This document shows positions 3,074 to 29,484 of a stretch of 64,000 nucleotides of DNA, in pieces. Made by a program: the position numbers and the translations under genes. The notes under the pieces are model-generated. The model searched no databases. It had not been told where the DNA came from and saw only the letters and a program-made list of their open reading frames with translations. The stretch covers positions 3,296,001-3,360,000 of the forward strand of contig OX638340.1 in NCBI GenBank assembly GCA_951812955.1, written 5' to 3'. The stretch comes from an uncultured Gemmatimonadota bacterium (GTDB lineage: Bacteria > JAAXHH01). Each line of letters opens with the position of its first letter. Positions within the stretch are counted from its first letter, which is position 1.

Positions 3074-4114
3074 CTATACGGACGGCATTTCCACGCTTAG
3101 TTCGGCCGCGGTTTCCGAGATCGAGTCCCAGGTCTTTTCCGGAATGTAAATCCCTTCGGCCAACCGCTTCCGCTTGGCGACTTCTTCGATCTCCCCCGGG
3201 GCGTACACCTTCTCGAATCCCGGCAGGGGTTTCGCCGAACCCACGTAGGCCACGTGGGCTTCGATTTCTGCGGTGTATGCGTCCAGGTCCATGAAGGCCC
3301 CGATGTCCATGGCGGCGATCAGGATCCCGCCGCCGCCCTTGCCACCCGTACACCCGGCCCTGGACAGGGGGCCGATGATCATCTCGATCATCATGGCCAG
3401 GCCGTGCCCCTTGTGGCCGAACTGCAGGCCGCCCAGGGGCAGCACGGCCACCTGGTCCGGTTCGGCGTGATACCGGCTCCCGTCGTTGACGTAGCGGCCC
3501 TGCTGGTCAATCAACCAGCCATCTGGCATCGGCTCACCGCGTTCGATCTTCTGTTCCACCTTGCCGCCCGCGACCACGCTGAGCGTCATGTCCAGCATGA
3601 GCGGCGGCCCCTTCTCCCGGGGCACGGCGAAGGCGATGGGCTCGGGACGGAGGCGCCGGTCGGCGCTACCGAAGGGCGCCACGAATTCGCCGCCGCCGTT
3701 CAACCCGACCATGCCGATCATGCCGTGTTCGGCGATCCGCGGAGGAAAGTCCCCCAGCCGGCCGATATGGGAAACGTTGCGCAGGGCGACCAGGCCGATC
3801 GCGGCGTTCCGCGCTTTTTCAACCGCGATGGAGAGCGCTTTCGTAACCGCCACGATGCCGTTTGCGCCGTTCCCGTCGACTTGCGCAAAGCCGGGTCGGT
3901 CTACGATCACGGAATGGTCTTCCCACGGCTTGTAATCCGACTGCAGGGACGGGACGTAACGCGGCATGAACCACACGCCGTGGGAATCGTGCCCGAGCAG
4001 ATTGCTGGTCGTCAGGTGATCGGCGAGAATATGCGCGTCGTCTTCTGGGATGCCGGTCGCCTCGAAGATCGACCGGCTCAGGCTGTTCAGCTTGTCGTAG
4101 GGCACTACGGGCAT
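3074..4114 (-). CDS. Ldh_2 family (malate/L-lactate/sulfolactate dehydrogenase-like) oxidoreductase
   Basis: HDSHG, GxxNGI, HIGRLGDF and GHKGHGLAMMIE motifs. Start assigned to MPVVPY with a GAGGAG RBS. The longer ORF upstream only reads through the tandem repeat. Confidence 0.75.
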   Translation of the reverse strand: MPVVPYDKLNSLSRSIFEATGIPEDDAHILADHLTTSNLLGHDSHGVWFMPRYVPSLQSDYKPWEDHSVIVDRPGFAQVDGNGANGIVAVTKALSIAVEKARNAAIGLVALRNVSHIGRLGDFPPRIAEHGMIGMVGLNGGGEFVAPFGSADRRLRPEPIAFAVPREKGPPLMLDMTLSVVAGGKVEQKIERGEPMPDGWLIDQQGRYVNDGSRYHAEPDQVAVLPLGGLQFGHKGHGLAMMIEMIIGPLSRAGCTGGKGGGGILIAAMDIGAFMDLDAYTAEIEAHVAYVGSAKPLPGFEKVYAPGEIEEVAKRKRLAEGIYIPEKTWDSISETAAELSVEMPSV

Positions 4115-4162
4115 GGGCCAACTCCTCTGGAATCTGAAGTTTGCTAACGCTGGGCATGGGCG

Positions 4163-4279
4163 TCGAGCCGGATCTCGCGGACCAGGAGGATCGAGCGCGA
4201 ACCGCGCCGGATCTGCAGGACCAGAAGAATCGAGCGAGGTTCGAGCCGGATCTGCAGGATCAGATGAGTAAAATATCAC
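4163..4279. repeat. 39-bp tandem repeat x3 (cgagccggatctgcaggaccag...)
   Basis: Three consecutive near-identical 39-bp units read directly from the sequence, upstream of the Ldh_2 start. Confidence 0.8.
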
Positions 4280-4525
4280 ATCGCGGGTCAATGACAATCA
4301 GAATTGCGAATGACCTTGACTAGCCATAACGACATGAATATATTGGCACAATGAACCATATTGGCATTGCCAAAATGGCCATATCGGGACATATGACAGA
4401 ATGACATGATCTGAGCGGACTGGATATTCCCGCGTGCGGTTCCGTTGTTTTGATGAATTAACGATATAAATTACAACATCTTAAGTATGTATTCGAGTGA
4501 TGCGCAGATTGAAGAAGGTCGATGT

Positions 4526-4541
4526 TGGCACGGAAATTGCA
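4526..4541 (+). promoter_or_regulatory. Candidate sigma54 (RpoN) -24/-12 promoter upstream of groES
   Basis: TGGCACGgaaaTTGCA matches the consensus TGGCACG-N4-TTGCA exactly. It sits about 95 bp upstream of the groES ATG, inside a 330-bp AT-rich island. Confidence 0.5.
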
Positions 4542-4635
4542 CCATTGCACGGAAGGAATATGGACGCTAGCATCGTCAACAATCGTGCTGATTGAAGATC
4601 AGCGTACTTTTCACAATGGAAAGGAGCAGTAAACG

Positions 4636-4923
4636 ATGAACGTACAACCTTTGGGCGACCGCGTCCTGGTCAAGCGCCTCGAGGAAGAAGAGGTACAGCG
4701 CGGCGGTATCATCATTCCCGATACGGCGAAGGAAAAGCCGCAGCAGGGCGAGGTCGTGGCGGCCGGTCCGGGTCGCGTCGGCGACAACGGCGGCCGCGTG
4801 GAGCTGGAAGTCAAGGTCGGGGACAAGATCCTCTTTGGCAAATACTCCGGCACGGAAGTCAAGCTGGATGACGATGAGTATCTCATGATGCGCGAGGAAG
4901 ACATCCTGGGTATCGTGTCGTAG
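4636..4923 (+). CDS. groS: Co-chaperonin GroES
   Basis: 95 aa, [14 protein letters not shown]...[18 protein letters not shown]. Confidence 0.97.
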
Positions 4924-4967
4924 AGAATCACGTGTTGAACCGCAGCCGCGATCGGGCTTGCGGATGA

Positions 4968-6638
<1,671 letters not shown>

Positions 6639-6667
6639 TGCCTGCCGGGCAGTCCAAATGCATGAAG

Positions 6668-6704
6668 ACCGGCGCCGGCTGTTCAAGTCGGCGCCGGTTT
6701 TGTT
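6668..6704 (+). terminator. Rho-independent terminator after groEL
   Basis: Perfect 9-bp GC stem CCGGCGCCG/CGGCGCCGG with an 11-nt loop, followed by TTTTGTT. Confidence 0.65.
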
Positions 6705-6716
6705 AGGAAGGAATAC

Positions 6717-7067
6717 ATGCCTACCTACCAGTATCGCTGCAACGAATGCAATTACGAGTTTTCCGAGTTCCAGTCGATTACCGCAGATCCCCTATCGACG
6801 TGCCCGGAATGCGGCGGCGCCGTGCAACGCCTCATCAGCGGCGGCGCGGGTTTCCTTTTCAAGGGTGACGGATTCTACGCCACGGATTACCGCAGCGAGA
6901 ACTACAAGAAGGCGGAAAAAGCCGATAAGGAATCCTCGTCGGCCAAATCCGACGGGTCCAAGTCCGACGGGTCCGGATCCTCCGACGCTTCAGGTACCGG
7001 CAAAGAGTCGAAATCCAGCGCCTCTTCAAAGGTCGATTCGTCTTCGGGTTCGTCCGAGTCCAACTGA
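6717..7067 (+). CDS. FmdB-family zinc-ribbon protein with Ser/Lys-rich acidic tail
   Basis: MPTYQYRCNECNYEF...CPECGG is the CxxC-N-CxxC FmdB signature. Low-complexity SSSAKSDGSKSDGSGSS tail. It ends 10 nt before moxR. Confidence 0.7.
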   Translation: MPTYQYRCNECNYEFSEFQSITADPLSTCPECGGAVQRLISGGAGFLFKGDGFYATDYRSENYKKAEKADKESSSAKSDGSKSDGSGSSDASGTGKESKSSASSKVDSSSGSSESN

Positions 7068-7076
7068 AGGATCAAC

Positions 7077-8090
7077 ATGACCACGGAAAACGTGAAATCA
7101 CCGGACGACATCAAGGCCATCCACGACCGAATATACGAGCAGAGCGTCTTCGTCGACCGGCTGGTATCGGAAATCGGCAAGGTGATCGTCGGTCAGCATT
7201 ACATGGTCGAACGCCTCCTGATCGGCCTGCTGACCAATGGGCACATTCTGCTCGAAGGCGTGCCGGGGCTGGCCAAGACCCTGGCCGTCAAGACCCTGGC
7301 GTCGACGGTCGCGGCACGGTTCCACCGCATTCAGTTCACGCCCGACCTGCTCCCCGCCGATCTGACGGGCACCATGATCTACGAAGCGGGCAGCGGCGAG
7401 TTCATCGCCAAGAAGGGACCGATCTTCGCCCATCTCATCCTCGCGGACGAAATCAACCGTGCGCCGGCGAAAGTGCAGAGCGCCCTACTGGAGGCCATGC
7501 AGGAGCACCAGGTCACCATAGGCGACGAGACCTTTCCGCTCGAGGACCCCTTCCTGGTGCTCGCCACGCAGAATCCCATCGAGCAGGAAGGCACCTACCC
7601 CCTTCCGGAGGCCCAGGTCGACCGATTCATGCTCAAGCTGACCACGACCTATCCCCGCAAGGAAGAGGAACTCGAGATCCTGAACCGCATGACGACCGGC
7701 GAGTCGGTTGAAGTGGAACAGGTCGTGTCGCTGGAGGATATCGTCCGTGCGAGATCGATCATCAACCAGGTCTACATGGACGAGAAGATCAAGCAATACA
7801 TCGTCGACCTCGTCTTCGCGACCCGCAACCCGGAGGACTACGGCGAGCTCACCGACATCCGCGACCTGGTGGAGTACGGCGCCTCGCCCCGTGCGACGAT
7901 CTACCTGGCGACGGCCGCGCGCGCGCACGCCTTCCTGCGCCGCAGAGGCTATGTCACCCCGGAGGACGTAAAGTCGATCGGAATGGACGTGTTGCGCCAC
8001 CGCGTCATCGTTACCTACGAGGCGGAGGCGGAAGACATGACCGCGGAACAAATCCTTCAGCGCGTGTTCGACTGTGTAGAGATCCCTTGA
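7077..8090 (+). CDS. MoxR-family AAA+ ATPase
   Basis: GVPGLAKT Walker A, LADEINRAP Walker B/sensor, 337 aa. Confidence 0.9.
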   Translation: MTTENVKSPDDIKAIHDRIYEQSVFVDRLVSEIGKVIVGQHYMVERLLIGLLTNGHILLEGVPGLAKTLAVKTLASTVAARFHRIQFTPDLLPADLTGTMIYEAGSGEFIAKKGPIFAHLILADEINRAPAKVQSALLEAMQEHQVTIGDETFPLEDPFLVLATQNPIEQEGTYPLPEAQVDRFMLKLTTTYPRKEEELEILNRMTTGESVEVEQVVSLEDIVRARSIINQVYMDEKIKQYIVDLVFATRNPEDYGELTDIRDLVEYGASPRATIYLATAARAHAFLRRRGYVTPEDVKSIGMDVLRHRVIVTYEAEAEDMTAEQILQRVFDCVEIP

Positions 8091-8968
8091 TACCCAGGCA
8101 GATTATCCAGAAAATCCGGCAGATCGAGATCCGGACCAAGCATCTCGTGAACGACGTGTTCAGCGGAGAGTACCACAGCGTCTTCAAGGGCCGCGGCATG
8201 GAATTCGCCGAGGTGCGCGAATACGAGCCGGGAGACGAGATCCGATCGATCGACTGGAACGTCACCGCCCGGCTGGGACGTCCCTATGTCAAGCGGTTCA
8301 TCGAGGAAAGGGAACTGACGGTCATTCTCATGGCCGACGTCAGCGCATCGGGCCATTTCGGCACGGCGAGCCAGATGAAGAGCGAGATTACCGCGGAAAT
8401 CTGCGCGCTGCTTGCTTTTGCGGCGATCCAGAACAATGACCGTGTCGGCCTCCTCATGTTCACCGATCAGATCGAGAAGTTCATCCCGCCGAAGAAGGGC
8501 CGGACCCATATTCTGCGGGTCATCCGGGAAGTGCTGTACACCCGGCCCGATCACACCGGCACCGACATCACACAAGCGCTCGATTACCTGAACCGGTTGC
8601 TGACGCGCAGGAGCATAGTCTTCATCATATCGGATTTTCTCGATTCGGACTATGCCAAGCCGCTGCGGGTGGCCAGCAAACGGCATGACGTGGTCGCCGT
8701 AACGATCACGGACCCGAGGGAACTCGATCTGCCCGGCATCGGGCTGATCGAACTGCAGGACGCGGAATCGGGAGAGGAAGCGCTCATCGACACCACCGAC
8801 GCCGCATGGCGCAAGCAGTATGCCGAGTACAACGAGGCCATTCGTGAAGACCGCGACCGGCAATTCAGGGTGACCGGCGTGGACGCAATCCATATCCGTA
8901 CGGACGAACCCTACATCGATCCGCTGATGCAGTTCTTCAAGCTGCGCGAACGCAAAATCGCGCGGTGA
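8087..8968 (+). CDS. DUF58 (vWA-like) protein partner of MoxR
   Basis: EYEPGDEIRSIDWNVTAR and LMADVSASG motifs. Start overlaps the moxR stop (ATGA). Confidence 0.85.
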   Translation: MIPRQIIQKIRQIEIRTKHLVNDVFSGEYHSVFKGRGMEFAEVREYEPGDEIRSIDWNVTARLGRPYVKRFIEERELTVILMADVSASGHFGTASQMKSEITAEICALLAFAAIQNNDRVGLLMFTDQIEKFIPPKKGRTHILRVIREVLYTRPDHTGTDITQALDYLNRLLTRRSIVFIISDFLDSDYAKPLRVASKRHDVVAVTITDPRELDLPGIGLIELQDAESGEEALIDTTDAAWRKQYAEYNEAIREDRDRQFRVTGVDAIHIRTDEPYIDPLMQFFKLRERKIAR

Positions 8969-9118
8969 ATCGAAAACGGCGCGCCGGACCTGTCCGCGGG
9001 ATCGGGTCGAAAGGCAACAAAGGCTTGCATTTCATCACTTTGTGCGGTAAATTAGGTTACTTTGAAAACCGCTGTCCGTTTCGCGCGAAACTTGCGGGAA
9101 AGGCACTGGGAGCCTGAC

Positions 9119-10066
9119 GTGATAGAAGTAAAGAATCTGACCAAGAAATACGGTAATTTCACCGCGGTCCGGGACGTGAGTTTCCAGGTCGAAAAGGGCG
9201 AGATTCTCGGATTCCTCGGGCCGAACGCCGCGGGCAAGACCACTACCATGCGGGTGCTGACCTGCTTCATGCCCGCGACGGCCGGCACCGCCCGGGTGGC
9301 AGGGTTCGACACGTTCAACCAATCCCTCGAGGTGCGCCGCAGGGTGGGATACCTCCCGGAAAACGTACCCCTTTACCTGGACATGCGGGTCCGTCCATAC
9401 CTGGAGTTTATCGCCCGGATCAAGGATATCCCTTCCCGCGATCGCAAAAAGGCCGTCAACCGCGTAATCGAGCTGGCCGCGCTGGAAGATGTCGAAAACC
9501 GGATTATCGGACATTGCTCCAAGGGATTTCGCCAACGGGTGGGACTGGCCCAGGCGCTGATACACGACCCCGACGTCCTGATCCTGGACGAGCCGACCAA
9601 CGGATTGGACCCGAAGCAGATCAACGAGGTCCGTGAGGTGATCAGGAGCCTGTCCGGGGACCATACCATTATTCTCAGCAGTCATATTCTGCCCGAAGTG
9701 AGCAAGACCTGCGAGCGTGTGCTCATTATCGACCGGGGACGGATCGTGGCCGGGGACACGCCGGCCAACCTGGACGCGCGGCTGCGGGGTTCGCAATCCA
9801 TCTCGGTACAAATCCGCGGTCCGGTCAAGGAAGTGATGGACCTGCTGAAGAAGAAGGATGGCGTGGTGGACGTGAAGACCAGGTCTTCACTCGGCGAAAG
9901 CCTCTGGCAATATGACATCGACATCATTCCCGGCAGGGATCTCCGTCCCGAGCTGGCATCGTCGGTGGTCGAAAACAACTGGGACCTCCTGGAACTCACC
10001 ACGGCCGGCATGAGCCTGGAAGAGATCTTCCTGGAGCTGACGACCCAGGAAGAGGAGGTATCCTGA
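9119..10066 (+). CDS. ABC transporter ATP-binding protein (GldA-like)
   Basis: GPNAAGKTT Walker A, LSGG-like CSKGFRQRV, ILDEPTNGLD. GTG start after a GGGAG RBS; the ORF-track start at 9062 is TTG and less likely. Confidence 0.85.
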   Translation: MIEVKNLTKKYGNFTAVRDVSFQVEKGEILGFLGPNAAGKTTTMRVLTCFMPATAGTARVAGFDTFNQSLEVRRRVGYLPENVPLYLDMRVRPYLEFIARIKDIPSRDRKKAVNRVIELAALEDVENRIIGHCSKGFRQRVGLAQALIHDPDVLILDEPTNGLDPKQINEVREVIRSLSGDHTIILSSHILPEVSKTCERVLIIDRGRIVAGDTPANLDARLRGSQSISVQIRGPVKEVMDLLKKKDGVVDVKTRSSLGESLWQYDIDIIPGRDLRPELASSVVENNWDLLELTTAGMSLEEIFLELTTQEEEVS

Positions 10067-10068
10067 CG

Positions 10069-10842
10069 ATGCAGGGATTACTGGCCATCTGGGAACGTGA
10101 ATTGAAAGCCTATTTCATTTCACCTATCTTCTACGCCCTTACCACCGTATTCATATTTATCGTAAGTTTCATGTTTTACCAGCAGTTAGGGAACTACACC
10201 GGGTATTTCATGCAGGCCGCGCAGTACCCGACGCTGATGGAGCGGATCAACATCAACGAGATGATCATGCGTCCGCTGTTCAATACCATGAGTTTCGTGG
10301 CCGTGCTGACCCTCATGCCCATGCTCACCATGCGGGTCTTTTCCGAGGAAAAGAAATCCGGCACGATCGAGCTGCTGCTGACTTCGCCGGTCAAGGACTG
10401 GCACGTGATCCTGGGCAAGTTTTTGGCGGCCTATACCCTGTACACGGTCATGATCGGGCTGACGATGATCTACCCGCTGGTGCTTCAGGCGTATGGCGAT
10501 CCCGACTGGGGTCCCATCTGGGCCGGCTACCTGGGCCTCCTGCTCCTCGGCGGCGGCGTGATAACCATCGGGTTGTTCGCCTCGTCGCTGACGGAGAACC
10601 AGATCGTGGCCGCCGTGATCTGCTTCGGCGCCGCGCTCATACTCTGGATGATGGACGTAGCCGCGGAATCGATGACCGGTACTTTGGGGGAAATTGTCGG
10701 CTACCTGTCCGTGCTGAGGCACTACAATACCTTTGAAAAAGGGATCATCGACTCGACGGACTGCCTGTTTTTCCTCAGTTTCATTTTCCTGGGCCTGTTC
10801 ATCACGGTCCGGTCGGTGGAATCGACGCGGTGGCGAGGATAA
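10069..10842 (+). CDS. ABC-2 family permease (GldF-like)
   Basis: Six predicted TM segments. Immediately follows the ATPase. Confidence 0.75.
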   Translation: MQGLLAIWERELKAYFISPIFYALTTVFIFIVSFMFYQQLGNYTGYFMQAAQYPTLMERININEMIMRPLFNTMSFVAVLTLMPMLTMRVFSEEKKSGTIELLLTSPVKDWHVILGKFLAAYTLYTVMIGLTMIYPLVLQAYGDPDWGPIWAGYLGLLLLGGGVITIGLFASSLTENQIVAAVICFGAALILWMMDVAAESMTGTLGEIVGYLSVLRHYNTFEKGIIDSTDCLFFLSFIFLGLFITVRSVESTRWRG

Positions 10843-10913
10843 CGCGTGTCCCGAATGGACGACATAGCCCGCGCCTTCGATAGTGCGGATCTGGCCAGGG
10901 GAGAAACCCTTAC

Positions 10914-12533
10914 ATGAAAAGTCTCGTTTCGTCCGCCGGTTACCTGGGTCTTATCCTGATCCTGGTCAGCGGGTACCTTTACGTCTCGGATGCGACGACG
11001 CAGCGCACGGCGTTGATCGCCCTGCTGGTAGGTCTGGCGCTCGGATCGACCTGGATGGTCTTCGAATGGGAGAAGGTATGGAACCTGCTCGGACGTCGTA
11101 CAACAAGATACGGCGCCAACACCGCCGTACTGGTGCTGCTGGTTATTGGAATCCTGGCATTCGCGAACATGATCGGCTCGCGATACACCCAGCGGTATGA
11201 CGCGACGGCCAACAAGCGGTTCAGCCTTGCCGACTTGTCCGTCAGCGTATTGAGCGAACTGGACCAGGAAGTTCACATCGTGGGGTTTTTCAGATCCAGC
11301 GGGCCCGATGCCACGAATCGGTATCTGCTCGACGACATGTTGAATCAGTTTCAGTACCATTCGGATCACATCACGTACGAATTCATAGACCCCGATCTCG
11401 AGCCGAGTATAGCGCGCCAGTACAACATCTCCGCCTACGGAACGGTCGTGTTCGAAAGCGAGGGCAAGACCGAGCACATCAACCGTTATCTCGAAGAAAG
11501 CGTGACCAACGCGCTGGTCAAGGTCACGCGCGAAGGCCAGAAGACCATTTACTTCCTGGAAGGCCACGGCGAACATAACGTCAACCTGACCGACCAGGCC
11601 GGCTACAACAGGATTATGCAGTTGCTCGAGAACCAGAGTTACACCGTCAGGAGCTTTTCGCTGCTCAGTGAGGTGGAGGTGCCGGCGGACTGTAACGTGC
11701 TGGTGGTGGCCGGTCCCCGGACCAACCTGGTGGGAAACGAGCAGGAAGCCATTCGCAACTACCTGGACCGCGGCGGCCGCGCCCTGTTCCTGATCAACCC
11801 CGACTATCCCGAAGAAAGCGCCGATCTGTCCGCGCTGCTCGCACACTGGAAGGTGCGGATCGGCGACAACGTCGTGATCGACGAAAGCGCCGTGGGCAGG
11901 TTGCCTGGCATGAACGAGTACATGCCGGCCGTCATGCAATACCCGGCCCATCCCATCACGCGCCCCCTTGGCAACACCGTGAGTTTCTTCCCACTGGTGC
12001 GGTCCATCGAAACGGCGTCGGCCTCAGACGATACCGTGGAGATTCAGACCATCGCCATGACCGGGGCCCGCAGCTGGGCGGAAACCACGCTGCCGGGATC
12101 GCCGGACGAAGCCATGGAGTACGTGCCCGTGCTGGATCCGGAAACGGACGAGCCTGGCCCGGTTTCCATCGCCGTGGCCATCACGGCCGTCCCCAGGGCG
12201 CTTCCGCGCAGGGACATGGCCACGCTGACGCCGCAGGAGATGGCGATGCGGCCGGAGGAGCACGAACTGAAAACCCGCATCGTGGTCGTTGGAAATTCAT
12301 CCTTTGCATCCAATGCCTACATCATGCTGCCGGGCAATGGCGACCTGGCCCTGAACATCCTCAACTGGCTCGCCCAGGAGGAGGACCTGCTCGCGATCCG
12401 GCCCAAGTCCAGCGACACCAGGCTGGTTCAGATTTCACTGAGCCAGATGTGGGATATCTTTATCTTCACCGGCATCCTCTCGCCCATCGCCATCCTGATC
12501 GCTGGCGTAGTGGTGTGGTGGAGAAGGAAATAG
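10914..12533 (+). CDS. GldG-like ABC-transport auxiliary protein
   Basis: 539 aa with N- and C-terminal TM anchors and conserved order after the ABC-2 permease (Gldg family). Confidence 0.7.
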   Translation: MKSLVSSAGYLGLILILVSGYLYVSDATTQRTALIALLVGLALGSTWMVFEWEKVWNLLGRRTTRYGANTAVLVLLVIGILAFANMIGSRYTQRYDATANKRFSLADLSVSVLSELDQEVHIVGFFRSSGPDATNRYLLDDMLNQFQYHSDHITYEFIDPDLEPSIARQYNISAYGTVVFESEGKTEHINRYLEESVTNALVKVTREGQKTIYFLEGHGEHNVNLTDQAGYNRIMQLLENQSYTVRSFSLLSEVEVPADCNVLVVAGPRTNLVGNEQEAIRNYLDRGGRALFLINPDYPEESADLSALLAHWKVRIGDNVVIDESAVGRLPGMNEYMPAVMQYPAHPITRPLGNTVSFFPLVRSIETASASDDTVEIQTIAMTGARSWAETTLPGSPDEAMEYVPVLDPETDEPGPVSIAVAITAVPRALPRRDMATLTPQEMAMRPEEHELKTRIVVVGNSSFASNAYIMLPGNGDLALNILNWLAQEEDLLAIRPKSSDTRLVQISLSQMWDIFIFTGILSPIAILIAGVVVWWRRK

Positions 12534-12546
12534 GAGACGAAACGCC

Positions 12547-14325
12547 GTGAGCGGTGGCCGATACACGATCATGCTGGCCTTGATTCTGGGTCTGCTGGCG
12601 TCCTACTTCTTCCTTTTCGTTAACGAGGAAGATCAGGTTGCGGAGATCGAGCGTGTATTCGAGATCAACCCCGAGGAGGTCGTCGAGATCAAGGTGACCG
12701 TGGACGGAGCGGCCACAACGATCGAGAAGGTACCCATGGAAGGTTGGGAGATTACCGATCCGGTCAGGTACGCCGCGGATCCCGACATCGTGGGTGCGTT
12801 GCTGCGTGAATTCTCCACTCTGTCCCCCGCACGTACTGTCGCCGATTCGGCGGAAGCCCTTTCGGAATACGGCCTTGAGAATCCGTCGGCGTCCGTCGAG
12901 GTCATCCGGGGTCTCGACAGGCCCATGGTGTTGCTGCTGGGAGACGTGAACCCGACGGGCGCAGCCCATTATGCCGTGGAAAGTGGTAAACGGAGGGTAT
13001 TCCTCATTTCCTCGCAGATCAATGGGAACCTGCGAAGGACGTCCGACGCATTGCGCGACCGCAGTCTGATTCGCGTCGAACGGGACGACGTGGAAGAGCT
13101 CATCCTCGAAAAGGGCGACCGCCGGATCGTCATCGGCCTGGACCCCTTCGGAACATGGCGCGTAGAAGCGCCGTACCGGCTCCCTGCCGAGCGCGATGAG
13201 GTGGTCAACGCCTTGACCACGATTATCGGGGCCTCGGCCATTTCCTTCGTCGACGAAGCGCCGTCTTCGCTTGATGAATACGGTTTGGCGAATCCGGTGA
13301 TGACGGCGACCGTGAAATCCGGCGACGGCAGCATTCTCCAGACGCTTTCACTGGGCAATGATCATTTGGGCCAGGTTTTTGCCATGACCAGCGAAAGACG
13401 CAACGTATACTCGGTATCGACTTCGATCCTGCGCCAGCTGGACCGGGAACCCGAGTTTTACAGGCGGGTCACGGCTTTCGATTTTCAATCCTACAGGATC
13501 CCCGACTTTTCGATGGAACTGGGAGACGAGACCGTAACCCTGGTCAAGCATGCCTTCGAAGACTGGCGTATGACGTCTCCCTACGAATTGAGAGCCAACG
13601 ACCGTTTTATCACGGCCATGCTGGACAGCCTGGAGATCATGCGTGTGCGGGAACACATACCGCTGACGGACGCGAACAAAGCGACTTACGGTTTCGAGAA
13701 CCCGGCTGCCAGCCTCTCGCTAACGATCGAGGACCGGGTGAGACCCCAGGAAATCCTGGTCGGCTCGGCCTCCGGCGATGGGCAGTATGAATATGTGATG
13801 GACCCCGCGGAGGAGTGGATCTACGCAGTGGATGAAACTACGCTGCAGCGTCTGCCTGCCTCCGCGATCGACTTGCGCGACAATAAGATCCTTCGGTTCA
13901 AAGGCTATCAGGTACACATGTTCGAGGTGGTCACGCCCGACGAACGTTTGCGGGTGCGCCGCGACCAGAAGCAAAGAGTCGTATGGAAAATCGAAGAGCC
14001 TTCATCGGGCGACGCCGACGCGATCTCGGTCGGCCGGGCGTTCAGCGAGCTGGATTCACTGTATTCGCAGGCCTTCATAACGGCAGACCCCGACGCTGAC
14101 CTGTCAACCTATGGACTGGACAGACCGATCATGGAACTTACGCTGCAGATCGGGGGCCGGGACGACGTGCTGGAAGAACGCTTATCGCTCCTGGTGGGCA
14201 AATCGTTTCCCGGGGACCAGAACCTGGTCTACGTCAAGCAAAGGAACAGCCCCGTCGTGTCCCTGGCCAGGGCCGGGTTCGTGGCCCGTATCAATGATAT
14301 GGTCGCCCAGACACCGAAATCGTGA
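12547..14325 (+). CDS. DUF4340-domain protein
   Basis: 592 aa, N-terminal TM, repeated beta-rich modules. It is the canonical fourth gene of ABC/ABC-2/GldG/DUF4340 clusters. Confidence 0.6.
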   Translation: MSGGRYTIMLALILGLLASYFFLFVNEEDQVAEIERVFEINPEEVVEIKVTVDGAATTIEKVPMEGWEITDPVRYAADPDIVGALLREFSTLSPARTVADSAEALSEYGLENPSASVEVIRGLDRPMVLLLGDVNPTGAAHYAVESGKRRVFLISSQINGNLRRTSDALRDRSLIRVERDDVEELILEKGDRRIVIGLDPFGTWRVEAPYRLPAERDEVVNALTTIIGASAISFVDEAPSSLDEYGLANPVMTATVKSGDGSILQTLSLGNDHLGQVFAMTSERRNVYSVSTSILRQLDREPEFYRRVTAFDFQSYRIPDFSMELGDETVTLVKHAFEDWRMTSPYELRANDRFITAMLDSLEIMRVREHIPLTDANKATYGFENPAASLSLTIEDRVRPQEILVGSASGDGQYEYVMDPAEEWIYAVDETTLQRLPASAIDLRDNKILRFKGYQVHMFEVVTPDERLRVRRDQKQRVVWKIEEPSSGDADAISVGRAFSELDSLYSQAFITADPDADLSTYGLDRPIMELTLQIGGRDDVLEERLSLLVGKSFPGDQNLVYVKQRNSPVVSLARAGFVARINDMVAQTPKS

Positions 14326-14326
14326 C

Positions 14327-15400
14327 ATGAGGCGGCATGCGGTGAGGTGTTCAAGCTTACTCGCCACCATCCTGGTGGCCGTCTCAACGAATCCGGCTGA
14401 TACCGAAGCCTTCCCGGCGCCGCAGGATGAAGACAACGGTTTCTCGATCGAGGCCTCGGTAGATCGCGACCGGATCACCGTGGGCGACCCCTTCCTGTAC
14501 CGGATCACCGTGAAGAGCCCCGGCAACTCCGCGGTCGAGTGGCCGGAATCAGGCCGCCCCCCGGAAGGTTTCGATCTCCTATCCTTCGAGCACGAGGGGC
14601 CCCTGTCCGGCCCCGGCGGAGTGAACGTCGATTCACTCCGCTACGAACTTACCCTTTATCGGACGGGCGAACATTCCATACCGTCATTCGCGCTGAAGTG
14701 CGTCCTGCTGGACGGTACCGAAATATCCGCCGAGTCGGATTCCATTTCCGTTACCGTCCTCAGCGTTATAGACGATGAGGCAGAGGATATACGCGATCTG
14801 AAGGATCCGGTGGAGATCCCTGGCGAAGTGCCCTGGTACTTCTGGGCGATCGGCGGACTGGTGCTGCTCGCCGTCGCGACGGGCCTCTTTCTGTACTTCA
14901 GGCGCCGCGGGAAACGGAACGATGCGAACGGCCCGGATACGGCTATCGAACGCCTTCCCGAAGAGATCGCCCTGGAGGAGCTGGATCGACTGGCTCTCAA
15001 GGAGTGGCTGGTCCAGGGACACGTGAAAGCACATTACTCCGCGCTGTCTGAAATCCTGCGACGGTACCTGTCCGTGCGCTACGGGATAGCCGCCATGGAA
15101 TATACGACTTCCGAATTGATAGCGGCGTTGAACGCACTCGATCTCGGCCATGAGGAGTCACGGACCGTCCGTGTACTGTTCGAAGAATGCGACATGGTTA
15201 AATTCGCAAGGTATACACCCGAAACGCACCGGCAGTCACTTTCCTTGGGGGAAGGACGGGAGATCGTCGAGCTGACGAGCCCTCCCCCCGCGCCGGAGTA
15301 TGCCGCGCTGGACCGGAATGACGCCGAAGCCGATTCACCGGTATCCGGCGAGGTTTCCGCCGGCGATGCGGGTTCCGTACGAGCACCGTCTAAGGACTGA
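14327..15400 (+). CDS. Short BatD-like membrane protein (BatD paralog)
   Basis: Signal peptide, single TM (WYFWAIGGLVLLAVATGLFLYF) and a C-terminal helical domain ending ...CDMVKFARY. This parallels the BatD C-terminus ...CDLARFART at 21812..23704. Confidence 0.55.
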   Translation: MRRHAVRCSSLLATILVAVSTNPADTEAFPAPQDEDNGFSIEASVDRDRITVGDPFLYRITVKSPGNSAVEWPESGRPPEGFDLLSFEHEGPLSGPGGVNVDSLRYELTLYRTGEHSIPSFALKCVLLDGTEISAESDSISVTVLSVIDDEAEDIRDLKDPVEIPGEVPWYFWAIGGLVLLAVATGLFLYFRRRGKRNDANGPDTAIERLPEEIALEELDRLALKEWLVQGHVKAHYSALSEILRRYLSVRYGIAAMEYTTSELIAALNALDLGHEESRTVRVLFEECDMVKFARYTPETHRQSLSLGEGREIVELTSPPPAPEYAALDRNDAEADSPVSGEVSAGDAGSVRAPSKD

Positions 15401-15407
15401 AGCACTC

Positions 15408-16415
15408 ATGTTTTTTTCCATGCCCTTGATTCTTGTTCTGCTCGTGATCCTCCCAGTCCTACTATGGTGGTATCGCCGCCGGTTGAAGGGACGCCGGGGC
15501 GGCCTGACGTTCTCCGACATCTCCTTCGTAAACAAGCTGAAACCCGCGTCAATCCTCAAGTACCGCCACATTCCCGTCGTGCTGCGTGCCATGGCCATAG
15601 GACTGGCAATACTTGCCCTTGCCCGTCCGCAGACGGGTACCGAGGGCGCGGAAGTGATGACCGAGGGTATCGATATCGTGCTGGCGCTCGACATATCCGG
15701 CAGCATGGGGGCCGAGGACTATAAGCCCCGCAACCGGCTTTATGTTGCTAAAACCGTGATTTCCAGTTTTATCCGGGAGCGGCAAAACGACCGGATCGGC
15801 ATGGTGGTCTTCGCGGGACGTAGCTTCACGCAGTGCCCGCTTACGCTGGACTACGATGTACTGCTAGGCCTGTTGGAACAGGTGGAGATCGGGTTGACCG
15901 AGGACGGCACGGCCATTGGAATGGGAATCGCCAATTCCGTCAACCGGTTGCGCCAGAGCAGCGCCGAAAGCAAAGTGGTCATCCTGTTGACCGACGGCGT
16001 GAACAACACGGGTGCGATCGACCCGATCACCGCGGCCAAGGCGGCCAATGCGCTGGGGATCAAGATCTACTCGGTCGGCATAGGAAAGGAAGAAGGCGCG
16101 CCGATTCCCGTCGATGACCCTGTGCTCGGACGCACGTATGCCCGAAATCGGGACGGCAGCCTCGCACTCACGGAAATCGACGAGGAAACCCTGCGGCAGG
16201 TCGCAAGTATAACGGGCGGATTCTATTTCAAAGCGACCGATGGCGAGATGCTGTCCCACATTTATCAACGAATAGACGCGCTTGAACGCACGGAAATGAG
16301 CGTCATAGCCTACTCGAGGTATACCGAGTTATTCGGTTTTTTCCTGTTGCCGGCCATGTTTCTTGTGCTGGCCGAGGTCCTGTTGACACACACCCGGCTG
16401 AGGAGACTCCCCTAG
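15408..16415 (+). CDS. batA: BatA, vWA-domain membrane protein
   Basis: N-terminal TM pair, vWA MIDAS DISGSM, TDGVNNTG. Confidence 0.8.
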   Translation: MFFSMPLILVLLVILPVLLWWYRRRLKGRRGGLTFSDISFVNKLKPASILKYRHIPVVLRAMAIGLAILALARPQTGTEGAEVMTEGIDIVLALDISGSMGAEDYKPRNRLYVAKTVISSFIRERQNDRIGMVVFAGRSFTQCPLTLDYDVLLGLLEQVEIGLTEDGTAIGMGIANSVNRLRQSSAESKVVILLTDGVNNTGAIDPITAAKAANALGIKIYSVGIGKEEGAPIPVDDPVLGRTYARNRDGSLALTEIDEETLRQVASITGGFYFKATDGEMLSHIYQRIDALERTEMSVIAYSRYTELFGFFLLPAMFLVLAEVLLTHTRLRRLP

Positions 16416-16451
16416 GCCGGGGAGGACGCGTACCGGTTCTCCGGAGCAGAC

Positions 16452-17483
16452 ATGCGATTTGCCCAACCCGAGTTTCTTTACCTGCTTGCGATTGCGCCGC
16501 TGCTCATCCTTTTCTTTATCGTTCGGTTCCGGCACAGGCGCGACGTGCTCAGGAAGTTAGGCGAGCAGGCACTGCTGGACAGACTGTCCCGTTCAACCGT
16601 AGTTGGCAGGCAGCCGGTCAAGGCGGCGCTCGTGGTCCTGGCCCTGGTCTGCTTTGTTCTGGCACTCGCGCGTCCGCAGTTCGGAACCCGGTCCGAAACA
16701 ATTCGTCAGACCGGATTTTCTGTCATGGCCGCACTGGATGTTTCCAATAGTATGCTGGCCGAGGATGTCCGGCCGAATCGCCTCATACGGGCCAAGTATG
16801 CCGTTCGGTCCCTGGTGAGAAAACTCCGGAACGATCAGATCGGGCTGGTTGTTTTCGCCGGTTCCGCTTTTCTGCAGTGTCCGCTGACTTCCGATTACAG
16901 CATCGTCGAGCTCTTTCTGGACGGCATCGATACCCGGACTGTGGGCACGCAGGGAACGGCCATTTCGCAAGCGCTGCAAATCGCGGGCCAGTCGTTTCAA
17001 CAGGACCATAGGGGATACAAAGCCATCGTACTGATCACAGACGGAGAAGACCACCAGGAAGACCCGGTCGCCGTCGCAGCGGAACTGGCAGCCCAGGGCG
17101 TACGCGTTTACGTGGTGGGCATCGGTACCCCGAACGGCGTACCCATACCCATCATGGGCGAGGACGGCACGGTCGCCGGCCACATGCGGGACCGGTCCGG
17201 CGCAGTGGTCATGAGCCGTCTGGACGAGTCCACGTTGCGTCAGATCGCGGAAACGACCGGAGGGGCTTACTACAGGGCGTTGCCGGGGGGTGAAGAAATG
17301 GACCTGGTATACGATACCATCTCCTCGCTGGAGAGGGCGGAATTCGAAAGCAGGGAATTTACGCAGTACGTTGAACGTTTCCAGTATATATTGTTGTTCG
17401 GTTTGCTGTTACTGGTCGCGGATACCGTTATACGGGACCGCAGATTGCTCGACGAATCGCCGGAATCGGAACCAAAGCCATGA
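16452..17483 (+). CDS. batB: BatB, vWA-domain membrane protein
   Basis: DVSNSM MIDAS, TDGEDH, C-terminal TM. Confidence 0.8.
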   Translation: MRFAQPEFLYLLAIAPLLILFFIVRFRHRRDVLRKLGEQALLDRLSRSTVVGRQPVKAALVVLALVCFVLALARPQFGTRSETIRQTGFSVMAALDVSNSMLAEDVRPNRLIRAKYAVRSLVRKLRNDQIGLVVFAGSAFLQCPLTSDYSIVELFLDGIDTRTVGTQGTAISQALQIAGQSFQQDHRGYKAIVLITDGEDHQEDPVAVAAELAAQGVRVYVVGIGTPNGVPIPIMGEDGTVAGHMRDRSGAVVMSRLDESTLRQIAETTGGAYYRALPGGEEMDLVYDTISSLERAEFESREFTQYVERFQYILLFGLLLLVADTVIRDRRLLDESPESEPKP

Positions 17484-18190
17484 GCGTAATCCTGGTCATC
17501 CTGTTGTTTCTTGGTTGGCAGCCGGCCGCGAAGAATGCTCGTGGAAACCAGCTGTACCAACAGGAAAAATACGAAGAGGCGCTGGCGTCCTATACTGAAG
17601 CACTGGCGGAGGACGGCGAAAACCCGGCCTTGCACTACAATCGGGCCAACGCGCTGTACCGCTCCGAGCAGTATCCCTCTGCCGTGCAGTCGTATACGAA
17701 CGCATTGGACGGCGAAGCGCCGCTCGATGGCCGGGCCCGGTACAACCTGGGCAACAGCCTGTATCGCATGGGCCGGCTTGAAGACTCCATCGAGGCTTAC
17801 AAGGAGGCGCTTCGGATCAAGTCGGACGATCTCGACATGAAATACAACCTGGAATTCGTGACACGACAGCTACAGGAGCAGCAGGAAGAACAGGAACGCC
17901 GGAACGCGCAGAACCGTCAGGAAGACGGGGAAGATCAGGAAGACCGGGAGGATCAGGAGAATCAGAATGACCAGGAAGACCAGGAGGATCAGGAGAATCA
18001 GGAAGACGACGAGGGTCAGCAGCCGGAAGGAGAGGATGAGCCGCAACGGCAGCAGGCTCCCCGGGAGGGTGAACTGAGCAAAGCAGAGGCAGAACGACTC
18101 CTGAATGCCCTGAACAGGGACGAGCAGGATATACAGCGCCGGCTGCGCAGACAGCAGGCCACCCAGGTCAATCCGGAGAAAGACTGGTAA
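17480..18190 (+). CDS. batC: BatC, TPR-repeat protein with acidic (QEDxED) tail
   Basis: TPR helices (YNRANALYRSEQY, YNLGNSLYRMGRLEDSIEAYKEAL) plus a low-complexity EDQED repeat. Confidence 0.75.
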   Translation: MSVILVILLFLGWQPAAKNARGNQLYQQEKYEEALASYTEALAEDGENPALHYNRANALYRSEQYPSAVQSYTNALDGEAPLDGRARYNLGNSLYRMGRLEDSIEAYKEALRIKSDDLDMKYNLEFVTRQLQEQQEEQERRNAQNRQEDGEDQEDREDQENQNDQEDQEDQENQEDDEGQQPEGEDEPQRQQAPREGELSKAEAERLLNALNRDEQDIQRRLRRQQATQVNPEKDW

Positions 18191-18218
18191 CCGTTCCACG
18201 AATCGCGATGAAAACACC

Positions 18219-19622
18219 ATGATTGTCATGAAATTCGGCGGCACTTCAGTCGGCAGCGCGGAGGCCATTCAACAAGTCGTCGAGATCGTCAGAAAATACC
18301 GCGAACGCGACCTGTTGGTGGTCCTGTCCGCCATGAGCACGGTAACCGACTCGCTTCGGGAAATGGCCGCGGAGGCCTGCGGGGGGACGGAGCCCTCGTC
18401 TTCCCTCTCGGCTTTGAGGAAACGCCATGACGAGACGATTCGCGCCTTGGCCGAAGGGGAGGAGCGGAACCGGGCCCTCGAAGTCTGTGAGGGACTGATC
18501 GATGAACTATCGGGAATCCTGCACGGTATCACGCTGCTCAAGGAGCTTTCCCCGCGTTCGGTCGACCTGGTCAGTTCCTTCGGCGAACGCCTTTCCGTGG
18601 TTGTCGTCTCCGCGGCCCTCAGGTCGGCCGGCCTGTCGTCTCTTCCTGTCGATGCGCGCGAATACGTGAAGACGAACGAGCGCTACACCGAAGCGGAAGT
18701 GAATTTCGCCGAAACGGAACGCCGCCTGTCGGCGGGACTGGTCCCCATGGTATCCGACGGACGCATTCCCATCATAACGGGGTTTATCGGTTCGACCGAT
18801 GAAGGTGTCACCACGACCCTCGGGCGGGGCGCTTCGGACTACACCGCCTCCCTTGTCGCCGGTGCGATACAGGCAGAAGAAGTATGGATCTGGACGGACG
18901 TGGACGGCGCGATGACGGCCGACCCGCGCATGGTCGAGGACGCCCGCGTACTCAAGGAGATTTCGTATCTCGAGGCCGCCGAGATGTCCTATTTCGGCGC
19001 CAAGGTGCTCCATCCCATGACCATGCAGCCCGCGGTAAAACAGGAGATTCCCATCCGGATCCGGAACACCTTCCGGACCGAAAACGGCGGTACGGTCATT
19101 TCTTCGCGCACCTTTGAGGCCCCGCTGGGGGTGAAGGCCGTGACAAGCATCGACCGGCTCTGCCTGATCGTGGTCGAAGGAACCAGTCTCAGCAGAACGC
19201 CGGATACGCACGCCCGGCTCTTCAAGACCACGGCGGAACGCAAGACCCAGGTCATCATGATTACGCAGGCTTCCTCCGAACACGACATCTGCCTGGTCGT
19301 TGACGAAAAGGACAGCCAGGGAACCGTCCGGGCGCTGAAGAAGGAATTCCGTCATGAAGTCGCCGAAGGCAGCCTGGAGGAAATCTCGGTTCAACCCGAC
19401 CTGGCCGTGGTGGCGGTGGTCGGCGGCGGCATGAAGGGAACCCCGGGCATCGCGGCCCGCACATTCGGCATCCTCGGCGAACACGGGGTCAATATCATCG
19501 CCATCGCCCAGGGTTCATCCGAGCTGAACATTTCATTCATTGTCGAACGGAACGACCTGCAGAAGACCGTTCAACTGGTACACGCGTCCTTTGGACTCGG
19601 AGAGGACGGAGATTTTGAGTAA
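18219..19622 (+). CDS. Aspartate kinase with C-terminal ACT domains
   Basis: MKFGGTSV ... two ACT regions (VAVVGGGMKGTPGIAARTF). Confidence 0.9.
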   Translation: MIVMKFGGTSVGSAEAIQQVVEIVRKYRERDLLVVLSAMSTVTDSLREMAAEACGGTEPSSSLSALRKRHDETIRALAEGEERNRALEVCEGLIDELSGILHGITLLKELSPRSVDLVSSFGERLSVVVVSAALRSAGLSSLPVDAREYVKTNERYTEAEVNFAETERRLSAGLVPMVSDGRIPIITGFIGSTDEGVTTTLGRGASDYTASLVAGAIQAEEVWIWTDVDGAMTADPRMVEDARVLKEISYLEAAEMSYFGAKVLHPMTMQPAVKQEIPIRIRNTFRTENGGTVISSRTFEAPLGVKAVTSIDRLCLIVVEGTSLSRTPDTHARLFKTTAERKTQVIMITQASSEHDICLVVDEKDSQGTVRALKKEFRHEVAEGSLEEISVQPDLAVVAVVGGGMKGTPGIAARTFGILGEHGVNIIAIAQGSSELNISFIVERNDLQKTVQLVHASFGLGEDGDFE

Positions 19623-20721
19623 ATTAAACCTGTTTCAGTTCGGGAAGGGCAATATAGGCGGCGCATTGATCAGGCAGGTGGTGGACCGTACCGGGTCCCT
19701 GGCCGAAGCGAGCGGCCTTTGTTTCGAGTACGTAGGGATCTGCGGCCGGGACCAGGTGGTTTTCGATCCAGGGGGACTCAACGAGGCGCTTCAAGTAACC
19801 GGTGGACTCGACCGGTTGCTCGACGACGGGGACAGGCGTGCGGCCTACCCGGGCGCTGTTGCCATGATGGAACGTCTGCTGGATGATCCACCCGCGAACC
19901 TGTGCGTTATCGATACTACGTCCGCCGATATGACCGAAGTGCACCTGGGCTGTCTGCGCCGCGGCATTCCGGTCGTGACGGCCAACAAGAAACCCATAAC
20001 CGATCGGAGCAGTGCGTACGAAGAGATCCAGCGGCTCGGGCGCGCCCGGCGAATGCGATACTGGTACGAAACGACCGCCGGCGCCGGGCTGCCCGTCGTC
20101 AGTACGGTCAAGGAACTGGTGGACACCGGCGACGTGGTGACCGAAATCGCAGGATGCCTCAGCGGTACGCTGGGATACATCTGTTCCCGGCTTGACAGCG
20201 GGGGAGCCTTCTCGGAGATCGTCCGGGAAGCGAAGGAACTCGGTTTTACGGAACCAGATCCGCGGGACGACCTGAACGGAATGGACGTAGCAAGGAAAGC
20301 GCTGATCCTCGCGCGTGAGATCGGATACCGGCTTGAAATCGAAGAGCTGGAGATCAAGGGTATGGTCTCCGACGCCTTGCTGGAAGCCCCTTCGGTCGAG
20401 GCGTTCATGGATAAGCTCACCCTGGAAGACGCGGACTACGCACAGCGGGTCCAATCCTGCGGAAACAACGGGCAGGTGCTGCGATTCGTCGCGACGGTGG
20501 GAGACGACACTTGCCGGGTGGGACTCGAAAGTGTGGACCGGGAGAGTCCCCTGGGAAGCCTGGCCGGTCCGGATAACATGGTCGTATGCACCACGAAACG
20601 ATACCGAGACAACCCGCTGATCGTGCGGGGGCCGGGCGCCGGACCGGAGGTTACCGCCGGTGGCCTGTTTGGAGACCTGATCAAGGCCGCGAGAATGCTG
20701 TCCGGCAGCAATCATCCTTAA
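19615..20721 (+). CDS. hom: Homoserine dehydrogenase
   Basis: [11 protein letters not shown] Rossmann; HSD catalytic and C-terminal regions. Proposed TTG start overlaps the aspartate-kinase stop by 8 nt; an alternative ATG at 19540 lies inside the upstream gene. Confidence 0.8.
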
Positions 20722-20748
20722 CCTGTACACCTGATTCGGGAGCATGAA

Positions 20749-21807: not shown

Positions 21808-21811
21808 GCTC

Positions 21812-28696: not shown

Positions 28697-28701
28697 GGTC
28701 G

Positions 28702-29196: not shown

Positions 29197-29285
29197 AAAC
29201 CGCCTCCGATACGAGATCGTTCACAGGACTTCCAGCCCTCACTCATTATCCCCTCATGATTTCGACACGGAATCCGGTCGTTTTG

Positions 29286-29300
29286 TTTCAGATTCTGAAA
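29286..29300. promoter_or_regulatory. Perfect palindrome TTTCAGA-T-TCTGAAA in the divergent promoter region
   Basis: Read directly from the AT-rich 280-bp spacer between the membrane-protein gene and the ECF sigma gene. Confidence 0.35.
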
Positions 29301-29484
29301 TTTAAATCGATTTGACGTGATTGCCATCAGAAAAACATGACCGTGATCTGAAACATTTGTAGATTCCCATTAGTCTTACTCATGAGAGGGATACCGACCC
29401 GGGATCTCTTAAAGGGGTCGAATCAGTCCGGCGAAACGGCCCTGTACGCGGCTGAGACTCGCTTGAGGCAGAATGAGGCGACCC

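Follow-up and report, generated by a model that had tools for sequence, protein, structure and literature searches.

A predicted sigma-54 promoter with enhancer-like palindromes upstream of groES-groEL in an uncultured Gemmatimonadota bacterium

Introduction

Bacterial heat-shock genes are, in the textbook view, controlled by sigma-32 or by a repressor such as HrcA. By which route is the chaperonin operon groES-groEL transcribed in a 64,000-nucleotide stretch from an uncultured Gemmatimonadota bacterium (GenBank assembly GCA_951812955.1, contig OX638340.1, positions 3,296,001 to 3,360,000 of the forward strand; hereafter the window, 64 kb in length), where groES is preceded by an exact match to the -24/-12 consensus of sigma-54 (RpoN) promoters and where the controlling inverted repeat of chaperone expression (CIRCE), recognised by HrcA, is missing? 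The comparison of this locus with its relatives suggests that groES-groEL is probably transcribed from an activator-dependent sigma-54 promoter as part of a chaperone circuit, a reading that we hold with a probability of roughly 0.7. The sigma-54 promoter and the conserved enhancer-like palindrome that precede the operon are real and almost certainly functional. The argument starts from the following features:

4526..4541, + strand: sigma-54 promoter P2, TGGCACGGAAATTGCA (TGGCACG-gaaa-TTGCA; GG at 4527-4528 and GC at 4539-4540; predicted start at about 4552)
4636..4923, + strand: groES (Cpn10, 95 aa; Pfam Cpn10, E = 5.8e-37; NCBIfam co-chaperone GroES)
4998..6638, + strand: groEL (546 aa, Gly-Gly-Met tail; Pfam Cpn60_TCP1)

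The groEL product matches the TIGR02348 GroEL equivalog model with 876 bits, against a cut-off of 582.

The -24/-12 element and its conservation

The sequence TGGCACGGAAATTGCA is the sole zero-mismatch match to TGGCACG-N4-TTGCW in the 64 kb, where 0.018 matches would be expected from base composition on both strands, and it displays the hallmark of sigma-54 promoters, that is, GG at -24 and GC at -12 with the fixed spacing of TGGCAC-N5-TTGCW. A sequence-only reading of the window had already proposed an exact RpoN consensus placed about 95 bp ahead of groES, and both points hold, the distance from the end of the motif to the groES start at 4636 being 95 bp. Matches with one or two mismatches were found at chance frequency (10 against 8.7 expected), so that only the exact site stands out. 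Two one-mismatch motifs on the - strand look like chance matches; the motif at 16975-16990 has no downstream gene on its own strand, and that at 59318-59333 overlaps the start of a DtxR/FeoA-type regulator gene.

When one genome per species was scanned with GroES, three close loci came up, L001 (the complete metagenome-assembled genome (MAG) chromosome OY762445.1, GroES 99% identical), L002 (named Candidatus Latescibacterota, 95%) and L003 (89%), with the remainder at about 72% identity or lower and distributed over many phyla. A metagenome scan with GroES added no close relatives (best 73% identity). A protein search gave GroES clusters that were 73-97% identical, some of them named Latescibacteria or Zixibacteria by their sources, and subsequent contig look-ups provided eight more distinct loci (L161, L162, L165, L167, L168, L169, L170 and L172). 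The syntenic set therefore consists of the window and 11 relatives, a Latescibacterota/Zixibacteria-like clade with GroES proteins 73-99% identical. All 11 share the gene order groES, groEL, FmdB-family zinc-ribbon gene, MoxR and DUF58, and the gene located 5' of groES varies.

The -24/-12 motif is present on the groES strand in 11/11 of these relatives, 74-222 bp before the start codon. It takes the form TGGCA(C/T)-N5-TTGC (for example CTGGCACGATAATTGCA, CTGGCACGCGTTTTGCG, ATGGCACACGCTTTGCA and TTGGCACGCGCTTTGCA, with TGGCATAATCATTGCG in L003), and a weaker version, CGGCATAGAAGTTGCT, of the form CGGCAT-N5-TTGC, is found in L172. The GG and GC dinucleotides and the spacing between them are invariant across the syntenic loci, while the flanking sequences cannot be aligned outside the closest clade, which indicates that the element is under selection. 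In 1.21 Mb of fetched loci, TGGCA(C/T)-N5-TTGC(A/T/G) occurs 21 times, with 18 occurrences just upstream of groES (repeat assemblies of the same contig included), one upstream of an hsp20-groES operon and two elsewhere, meaning that 19 of the 21 precede groES or hsp operons, although these counts overstate independence because many of the loci are related to one another.

Sigma-54 motifs were also noticed in other groES leaders. Loci L010 (at 5927) and L096 (at 2923), which represent a further lineage and one of which is labelled as an Acidobacteria MAG, carry exact motifs 74-78 bp before groES, have no CIRCE, and share another upstream motif, AATTCTCCAGCAT. In the metagenomic leader L118 (740-1020), a CIRCE-like repeat, CTGGCACTC-N9-GAGTGCCAA, accompanies the sigma-54 motif TGGCATCGAGCTTGCG, whose -24 box lies within an exact GCCAATTTGGC palindrome.

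Absence of CIRCE and of other heat-shock control elements

The lack of CIRCE reported for the groES leader extends to the whole window, in which a search allowing 3 mismatches gave no copy of TTAGCACTC-N9-GAGTGCTAA; in the leader itself, even the closest match departs from it at 8/18 positions. The element is likewise absent from 11/11 syntenic relatives (at least 6 mismatches in each), and a recognisable CIRCE was found in about half of the approximately 155 groES loci scanned from other lineages. Compared with HrcA/CIRCE control, the arrangement described here concerns the same target operon and the same leader position before groES, but the inverted repeat is missing in the window and in its syntenic relatives, and activation rather than repression is proposed.

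Sites for sigma-32, HspR, CtsR and NifA are likewise missing. The best candidate for a sigma-32 promoter (CTTGAAA, 13-17 bp, CCCCATNT) scored 10/14, and its position is not conserved in the relatives. The best match to the HspR-associated inverted repeat (HspR/HAIR, CTTGAGT-N7-ACTCAAG) had 5/14 mismatches and that to the CtsR operator ((A/G)GTCAAA-NAN-(A/G)GTCAAA) 3/15, neither of them conserved. No NifA site (TGT-N10-ACA) was found within 260 bp upstream of the promoter in any of 17 loci.

Enhancer-like palindromes upstream of the promoter

A second hallmark of sigma-54 promoters is an upstream activator sequence located some 80-200 bp away. In the window this role could be played by two palindromes, listed here with the spacer that follows them:

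4355..4365: enhancer-like site 1, ACCATATTGGC (differs from GCCA-WWW-TGGC at one position; 171 bp ahead of the -24 box)
4369..4379: enhancer-like site 2, GCCAAAATGGC (exact GCCA-WWW-TGGC palindrome; candidate site for an NtrC-type activator)
4380..4525: AT-rich spacer between the enhancer sites and the promoter (possible bending region)

The exact palindrome GCCA-WWW-TGGC is present in 8/12 syntenic loci, in each case 129-165 bp ahead of the T of TGGCA; elsewhere in the 195 kb spanned by these loci it does not occur. When one mismatch is allowed, 10/12 loci carry one to three sites at -111 to -198, often 14 bp apart, which places them within the distance expected of an activator sequence; equivalents of site 1 are found in L001 and several other relatives. 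In the zone from -210 to -100, 19 one-mismatch matches were counted against 0.08 expected from the remaining sequence. The loci are interrelated and the counts therefore look more independent than they are, but the sites persist where the flanks have fully diverged. Both the position and the tandem arrangement are those expected of an enhancer for a sigma-54 activator, which would probably bind there. The NtrC site, TGCACCA-N3-TGGTGCA, has inner half-sites CCA...TGG separated by a 3-bp spacer, and GCCA-WWW-TGGC resembles sites of the NtrC family in this inner CCA...TGG and in its 3-bp A/T spacer.

The upstream region had been put forward as a possible binding site for an enhancer-binding protein, and a conserved enhancer-like element does lie there at the proper distance, although not in the form first described. 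A second TGGCAC, correctly located at 4344-4349, is not conserved beyond the nearest relatives. The palindrome TGGCA-T-TGCCA exists at 4362-4372, one base off the 4363-4373 originally given, and is merely the junction of the two GCCA-WWW-TGGC sites. Over the 120 bp that precede the -24 box, the AT fraction is 0.59 in the window and 0.47-0.78 in the relatives, and a search for an IHF consensus between the palindromes and P2 was negative.

A candidate activator in other lineages

The palindrome-plus-promoter module also precedes a chaperone operon in L115, a locus of an unrelated metagenomic lineage (GroES 64% identical, 42% GC). Two exact GCCATTTTGGC sites are located there at -157 and -116 from the promoter TGGCATGATACTTGCG, which precedes an operon encoding a 125-aa receiver protein, Hsp20, GroES and GroEL. 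In the extended contig (L173/L174), genes for a histidine kinase, an NtrC-type activator and clpB lie immediately upstream of this module; the activator (453 aa) has a REC domain, a sigma-54 interaction domain, HTH_8 and a GSFTGA loop, and its reading frame overlaps that of clpB. The cluster thus gives the palindrome and promoter a heat-shock context and supplies a candidate cognate two-component system. As a whole, this sigma-54 heat-shock cluster is compact (L115 1817-4936; L173 5893-11470).

Homologues of the L173 activator are 81-100% identical within its own lineage and 50-56% identical beyond it, a generic family level. One of them, P0248 (L176), forms a pair with a kinase and lies away from heat-shock genes, and another, P0280 (467 aa, L175, named Zixiibacteriota), is not linked to heat-shock genes. 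Assignment of the window's activator by homology to the L173 protein was consequently ruled out, given the generic identity and these two contexts. In L175 (7795-7845), a TTGACA-17-TATGAT promoter is followed at once by GCCATTTTGGC, ahead of an operon with a PMT_2/TPR gene and the gene for P0280, a layout with a single site that may represent autoregulation by a palindrome-recognising protein.

Another case is provided by L005 (Nitrospinota MAG, 3522-7934), in which the gene order runs from a rhomboid protease through an NtrC-type activator and the sigma-54 motif TGGCATAGCAATTGCT to groES-groEL, with the activator gene directly upstream of the sigma-54-type groES promoter. This locus has neither CIRCE nor a GCCA-WWW-TGGC site, and a ATGCCAAGGCAT palindrome stands about 35 bp ahead of its -24 box. 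At 47% identity, the activators of L173 and L005 are not similar enough to be called orthologues. A rhomboid protease gene is also listed in the sigma-54 set of Flavobacterium psychrophilum (PMC9723704). In the distant relatives of the window, a protein of about 310 aa encoded upstream of groES had no Pfam match.

A predicted sigma-70-like promoter ahead of the enhancer-like sites

A second promoter is predicted upstream of P2:

4316..4344, + strand: sigma-70-like promoter P1, TTGACT-17 bp-TATATT (predicted; 10/12 against the consensus; start at about 4351)

The sequence TTGAC(T/A/C)-17-TAT(A/T)TT is found in the window, L001, L002 and L161 with the same offset of -210 relative to the -24 box, and no P1-like promoter was found in the seven more distant syntenic loci. 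Since the start of P1 is predicted at about 4351, both palindromes fall at about +4 to +28 and the layout copies that of Escherichia coli glnAp1/glnAp2, where, as Reitzer and Magasanik are said to have described, NtrC sites repress an upstream sigma-70 promoter and activate a downstream sigma-54 promoter. In both layouts a sigma-70 promoter, predicted here, lies upstream and is overlapped by (here putative) activator sites that would constitute the enhancer of the downstream sigma-54 promoter. The two systems differ in their genes and signal, in the restriction of P1 to the window, L001, L002 and L161, and in that both promoters are here predicted. P1 may add basal expression in the closest relatives of the window, and in the distant ones read-through from a co-directional upstream gene could be its source.

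Proposed mechanism and alternative explanations

In the mechanism that we propose, the -24/-12 element at 4526-4541 would direct transcription of groESL from a start near 4552, under an enhancer made of the two adjacent GCCA-WWW-TGGC copies (4355-4365 and 4369-4379) that lie about 150-170 bp ahead of the -24 box. The palindromes would be bound by a response regulator of NtrC type whose gene is located beyond the limits of the window and which probably works with a histidine kinase; this regulator would loop the AT-rich spacer to contact the closed sigma-54 polymerase complex, and open this complex through ATP hydrolysis. Such a module would stand in for the HrcA/CIRCE repressor system before groES. 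In the closest relatives, P1 would fire into the enhancer sites and provide basal expression, with the essential chaperonin still being produced when the activator is off, whereas bound activator would block P1 and turn on P2.

Several observations weigh against this proposal. The conserved P1 of the closest relatives means that sigma-54 need not be the only expression route, if the prediction holds. The earlier view of an activator-dependent rather than repressor-based circuit is for this reason retained in part: the selected -24/-12 element and the missing CIRCE favour it, but P1 would allow activator-independent expression. No rpoN and no gene for an enhancer-binding protein was detected in the window or in the flanking sequences of the syntenic loci, these same sequences contain no GAFTGA or RpoN-box motif, and Pfam searches of essentially all open reading frames of the window returned no sigma-54 components. 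The regulators detected by Pfam in the window were an extracytoplasmic function (ECF) sigma factor, an OmpR-type regulator, DtxR-type regulators and a PspC-domain protein, and the presence of sigma-54 and of an activator in this genome is only implied. In addition, L165 and L167 retain the promoter and have no palindrome within one mismatch, protein-folding stress is suggested as the signal by gene content only, and to this must be added the interrelatedness of the loci counted and the two activator homologues away from heat-shock genes.

The alternative that survives best, although it appears unlikely, accepts a functional sigma-54 promoter and supposes that its activator senses a signal other than protein folding (nitrogen, redox, envelope or developmental), in which case the operon would not belong to a heat-shock circuit. 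The sequence does not name any signal, and the genes downstream of the operon are of MoxR/DUF58/Bat-like type. Precedents exist as well, because groESL3 of Bradyrhizobium japonicum depends on RpoN for symbiosis and not for heat (PMC4842269), and the sigma-54 chaperone promoters of F. psychrophilum are induced on blood agar and by osmotic stress (PMC9723704). Against this, no NifA-type TGT-N10-ACA site is found, and the groEL of the window is a standard GroEL equivalog in conserved synteny and not an accessory copy in a nif cluster. Moreover, the same enhancer motif stands before hsp20-groESL and beside clpB in L115/L173, a grouping typical of proteostasis.

Much less probable is that transcription proceeds from P1, with the palindromes serving as operator of a repressor that substitutes for HrcA, and with the -24/-12 element being a functionless look-alike. 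The conservation of P1 in the window, L001, L002 and L161 and its score of 10/12 would agree with this, as would the palindromes at +4 to +28 of the predicted start, a classic operator position, and the palindrome that follows a TTGACA-17-TATGAT promoter in L175. However, the seven distant syntenic loci have no P1 and yet all keep the -24/-12 element and mostly the palindromes 110-200 bp away, a functionless motif would not hold GG, GC and spacing through complete flank turnover, and in L115 the palindromes precede a sigma-54 motif and adjoin a sigma-54 activator gene.

Finally, a chance -24/-12 match in an AT-rich intergenic region, which the chance rate of one- and two-mismatch matches in the window might have suggested, is effectively refuted by the conservation of the motif in 11/11 syntenic relatives, by the 0.018 exact matches expected in 64 kb and by the 19 of 21 occurrences in 1.21 Mb that precede groES or hsp operons.

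A broader version of the proposed sigma-54 circuit can be put forward only tentatively, and we regard it as possible but doubtful. A two-component system made up of a histidine kinase and an NtrC-type activator and recognising GCCA-WWW-TGGC might control chaperone genes through sigma-54 in several uncultured phyla, namely Latescibacterota, Zixibacteria and the L115 lineage. Its regulon would comprise groESL, hsp20 and probably clpB and other genes. It would take the place of both HrcA/CIRCE and sigma-32, with a glnA-like switch from basal sigma-70 to induced sigma-54 transcription in the clade of the window.

Relation to known systems

The sequence-only reading had considered sigma-54 control of groESL unusual, which is an overstatement in view of the precedents in PMC4842269, PMC9723704 and PMC12316311. 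The closest is F. psychrophilum, for which PMC9723704 describes transcription starts, determined by 5'-end RNA sequencing, that carry a -24/-12 motif (SM4) at chaperone and protease genes, the set comprising groES-groEL, lon, dnaK, grpE-dnaJ, htpG, clpB, skp and a rhomboid protease gene. The likeness lies in a -24/-12 promoter directly before groES-groEL with no CIRCE logic. The differences are that the Flavobacterium starts were mapped experimentally whereas the window locus is known by comparison only, and that three candidate activators are mentioned there with none assigned, leaving activator and site undefined, whereas a candidate enhancer is available here, together with a candidate kinase/activator pair from a different lineage.

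A 2025 survey (PMC12316311) predicts enrichment of sigma-54 promoters at the GroEL, GroES, IbpA, GrpE, DnaJ and DnaK genes in Bacteroidota and Planctomycetota, and thus resembles the present work in placing sigma-54 motifs before chaperone genes outside Proteobacteria. Latescibacterota, Nitrospinota and Acidobacteria are absent from its main text, and in the parts consulted no enhancer motif is reported for chaperone genes.

The kinase/activator/clpB cluster beside hsp20-groESL in L173 follows the same logic as HsfB/HsfA of Myxococcus xanthus, a kinase together with an NtrC-like regulator by which lonD, a heat-shock gene, is directly activated (Ueki and Inouye 2002, cited through PMC9109919). 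By that account, the myxobacterial system differs in its target, lonD, in the hybrid nature of the kinase HsfB, and in that HsfA also runs secondary-metabolite and pilus genes. The relationship seen for the L173 activator goes no further than the NtrC family.

The groESL3 operon of B. japonicum, which is NifA and RpoN dependent, is similar in being a groESL operon with a -24/-12 promoter, and differs in being one of several copies, co-regulated with nitrogen fixation through NifA sites TGT-N10-ACA (PMC4842269). The operon of the window, unlike groESL3, looks like the housekeeping copy.

A literature search pairing Latescibacterota with sigma-54 retrieved only unrelated subject matter. The sigma-54 groESL arrangement is one that had been mapped already in Flavobacterium and is new for the lineage of the window. 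The locus and its relatives extend the sigma-54 chaperone route to Latescibacterota and neighbouring candidate phyla, the former belonging to the same Fibrobacterota-Chlorobiota-Bacteroidota group as Flavobacterium. What the present loci add is a concrete enhancer motif that keeps a fixed distance to the promoter and recurs at an hsp20-groESL operon, and a possible two-promoter switch, with the L115/L173 cluster supplying a specific candidate kinase/activator pair. So far, the activator-driven sigma-54 route has been represented by mapped starts in one Flavobacterium and by motif surveys (PMC9723704, PMC12316311), neither of which identifies the activator or its DNA site in the parts accessible. 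If the proposed circuit is correct, it would open a way to study the sensing of protein-folding stress in a large group of uncultured bacteria, and the broader, doubtful version would in addition name the activator and enhancer behind the sigma-54 proteostasis regulons of Bacteroidota.

The leader RNA

The transcript expected from P2 would carry a leader with the following features:

4552..4635, + strand: predicted 84-nt 5' untranslated leader (deduced from where the -12 GC lies)
4587..4603, + strand: leader hairpin GCTGAT-tgaag-ATCAGC (folds as the 7-bp stem GCUGAUU-gaa-GAUCAGC)
4620..4626, + strand: ribosome-binding site AAAGGAG (predicted to pair in part with CUUUUC, located upstream)

The hairpin had been recognised from the sequence alone, and it reappears in the computed fold with the sequence given and a 7-bp stem. 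The stem sequence is kept in L001, L002 and L161 with a loop of variable length, and the corresponding place in L003 is taken by another stable hairpin. The leader folds with an energy of -22.1 kcal/mol (z = -1.6), with CUUUUC pairing with GAAAGG at the ribosome-binding site, and the consensus fold of four sequences is weak (-4.4 kcal/mol). Occlusion of the ribosome-binding site was not significant when compared with shuffled leaders (p of about 0.1 for the close clade and no signal in the other relatives), and a search of 4050-5050 against Rfam returned nothing meaningful, RNA thermometers (ROSE, fourU) included. An RNA thermometer was accordingly demoted to a mere possibility, the occlusion being no better than in shuffles and not general among the relatives.

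Neighbouring genes and other features of the window

The operon is followed by one further element, noticed by direct reading of the sequence:

6668..6704, + strand: terminator-like hairpin 3' of groEL, ACCGGCGCCGGC...GTCGGCGCCGGT, then TTTTGTT

The scan tool did not report a terminator-like hairpin at 6668-6704. Its location after groEL suggests that groES and groEL form a two-gene transcription unit.

On the other side, a divergent intergenic region of 520 bp separates groES from an Ldh_2-family gene (3074-4117, - strand). The GC content is 0.40-0.47 across 4200-4600, about 0.60-0.65 in the flanks on either side and about 0.61 in the remainder of the window, so that the drop described earlier as an AT-rich island is present, but it corresponds merely to this intergenic region and a foreign origin was rejected. 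Between the start of the Ldh_2-family gene (4117, - strand) and the AT-rich regulatory region lies a tandem repeat (4164-4264) made of 2.6 copies of a GC-rich 39-bp unit, CGAGCCGGATCTGCAGGACCAGAAGAATCGAGCGAGAAC, which is unique within the window; L001 appears to have one extra copy, and L002 and L161 have none.

Directly after groEL, in the window and in its syntenic relatives, comes an FmdB-family gene encoding a CxxC-CxxC zinc ribbon (TIGR02605, 6717-7067). Its location 3' of groEL is specific to this syntenic set, no other fetched groES locus having one there, and it could conceivably have a regulatory tie to groESL or sigma-54. The next gene, for a MoxR AAA+ ATPase, begins 9 bp further on and belongs to a long cluster (7077-24558) similar to the Bacteroides aerotolerance (Bat) operon. 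This cluster encodes MoxR, DUF58, an ABC-2 transporter with auxiliary proteins (DUF4340, DUF4381), two BatA/VWA proteins, a TPR protein, BatD and a TPR-SH3 protein, and is broken at 18219-21807 by genes for aspartate kinase, homoserine dehydrogenase and aspartate-semialdehyde dehydrogenase. Further downstream (27776-30072), the gene for the PspC-domain protein (459 aa, - strand) is divergent from that of the ECF-type sigma-70 family factor (199 aa), a pair that may constitute an envelope-stress module.

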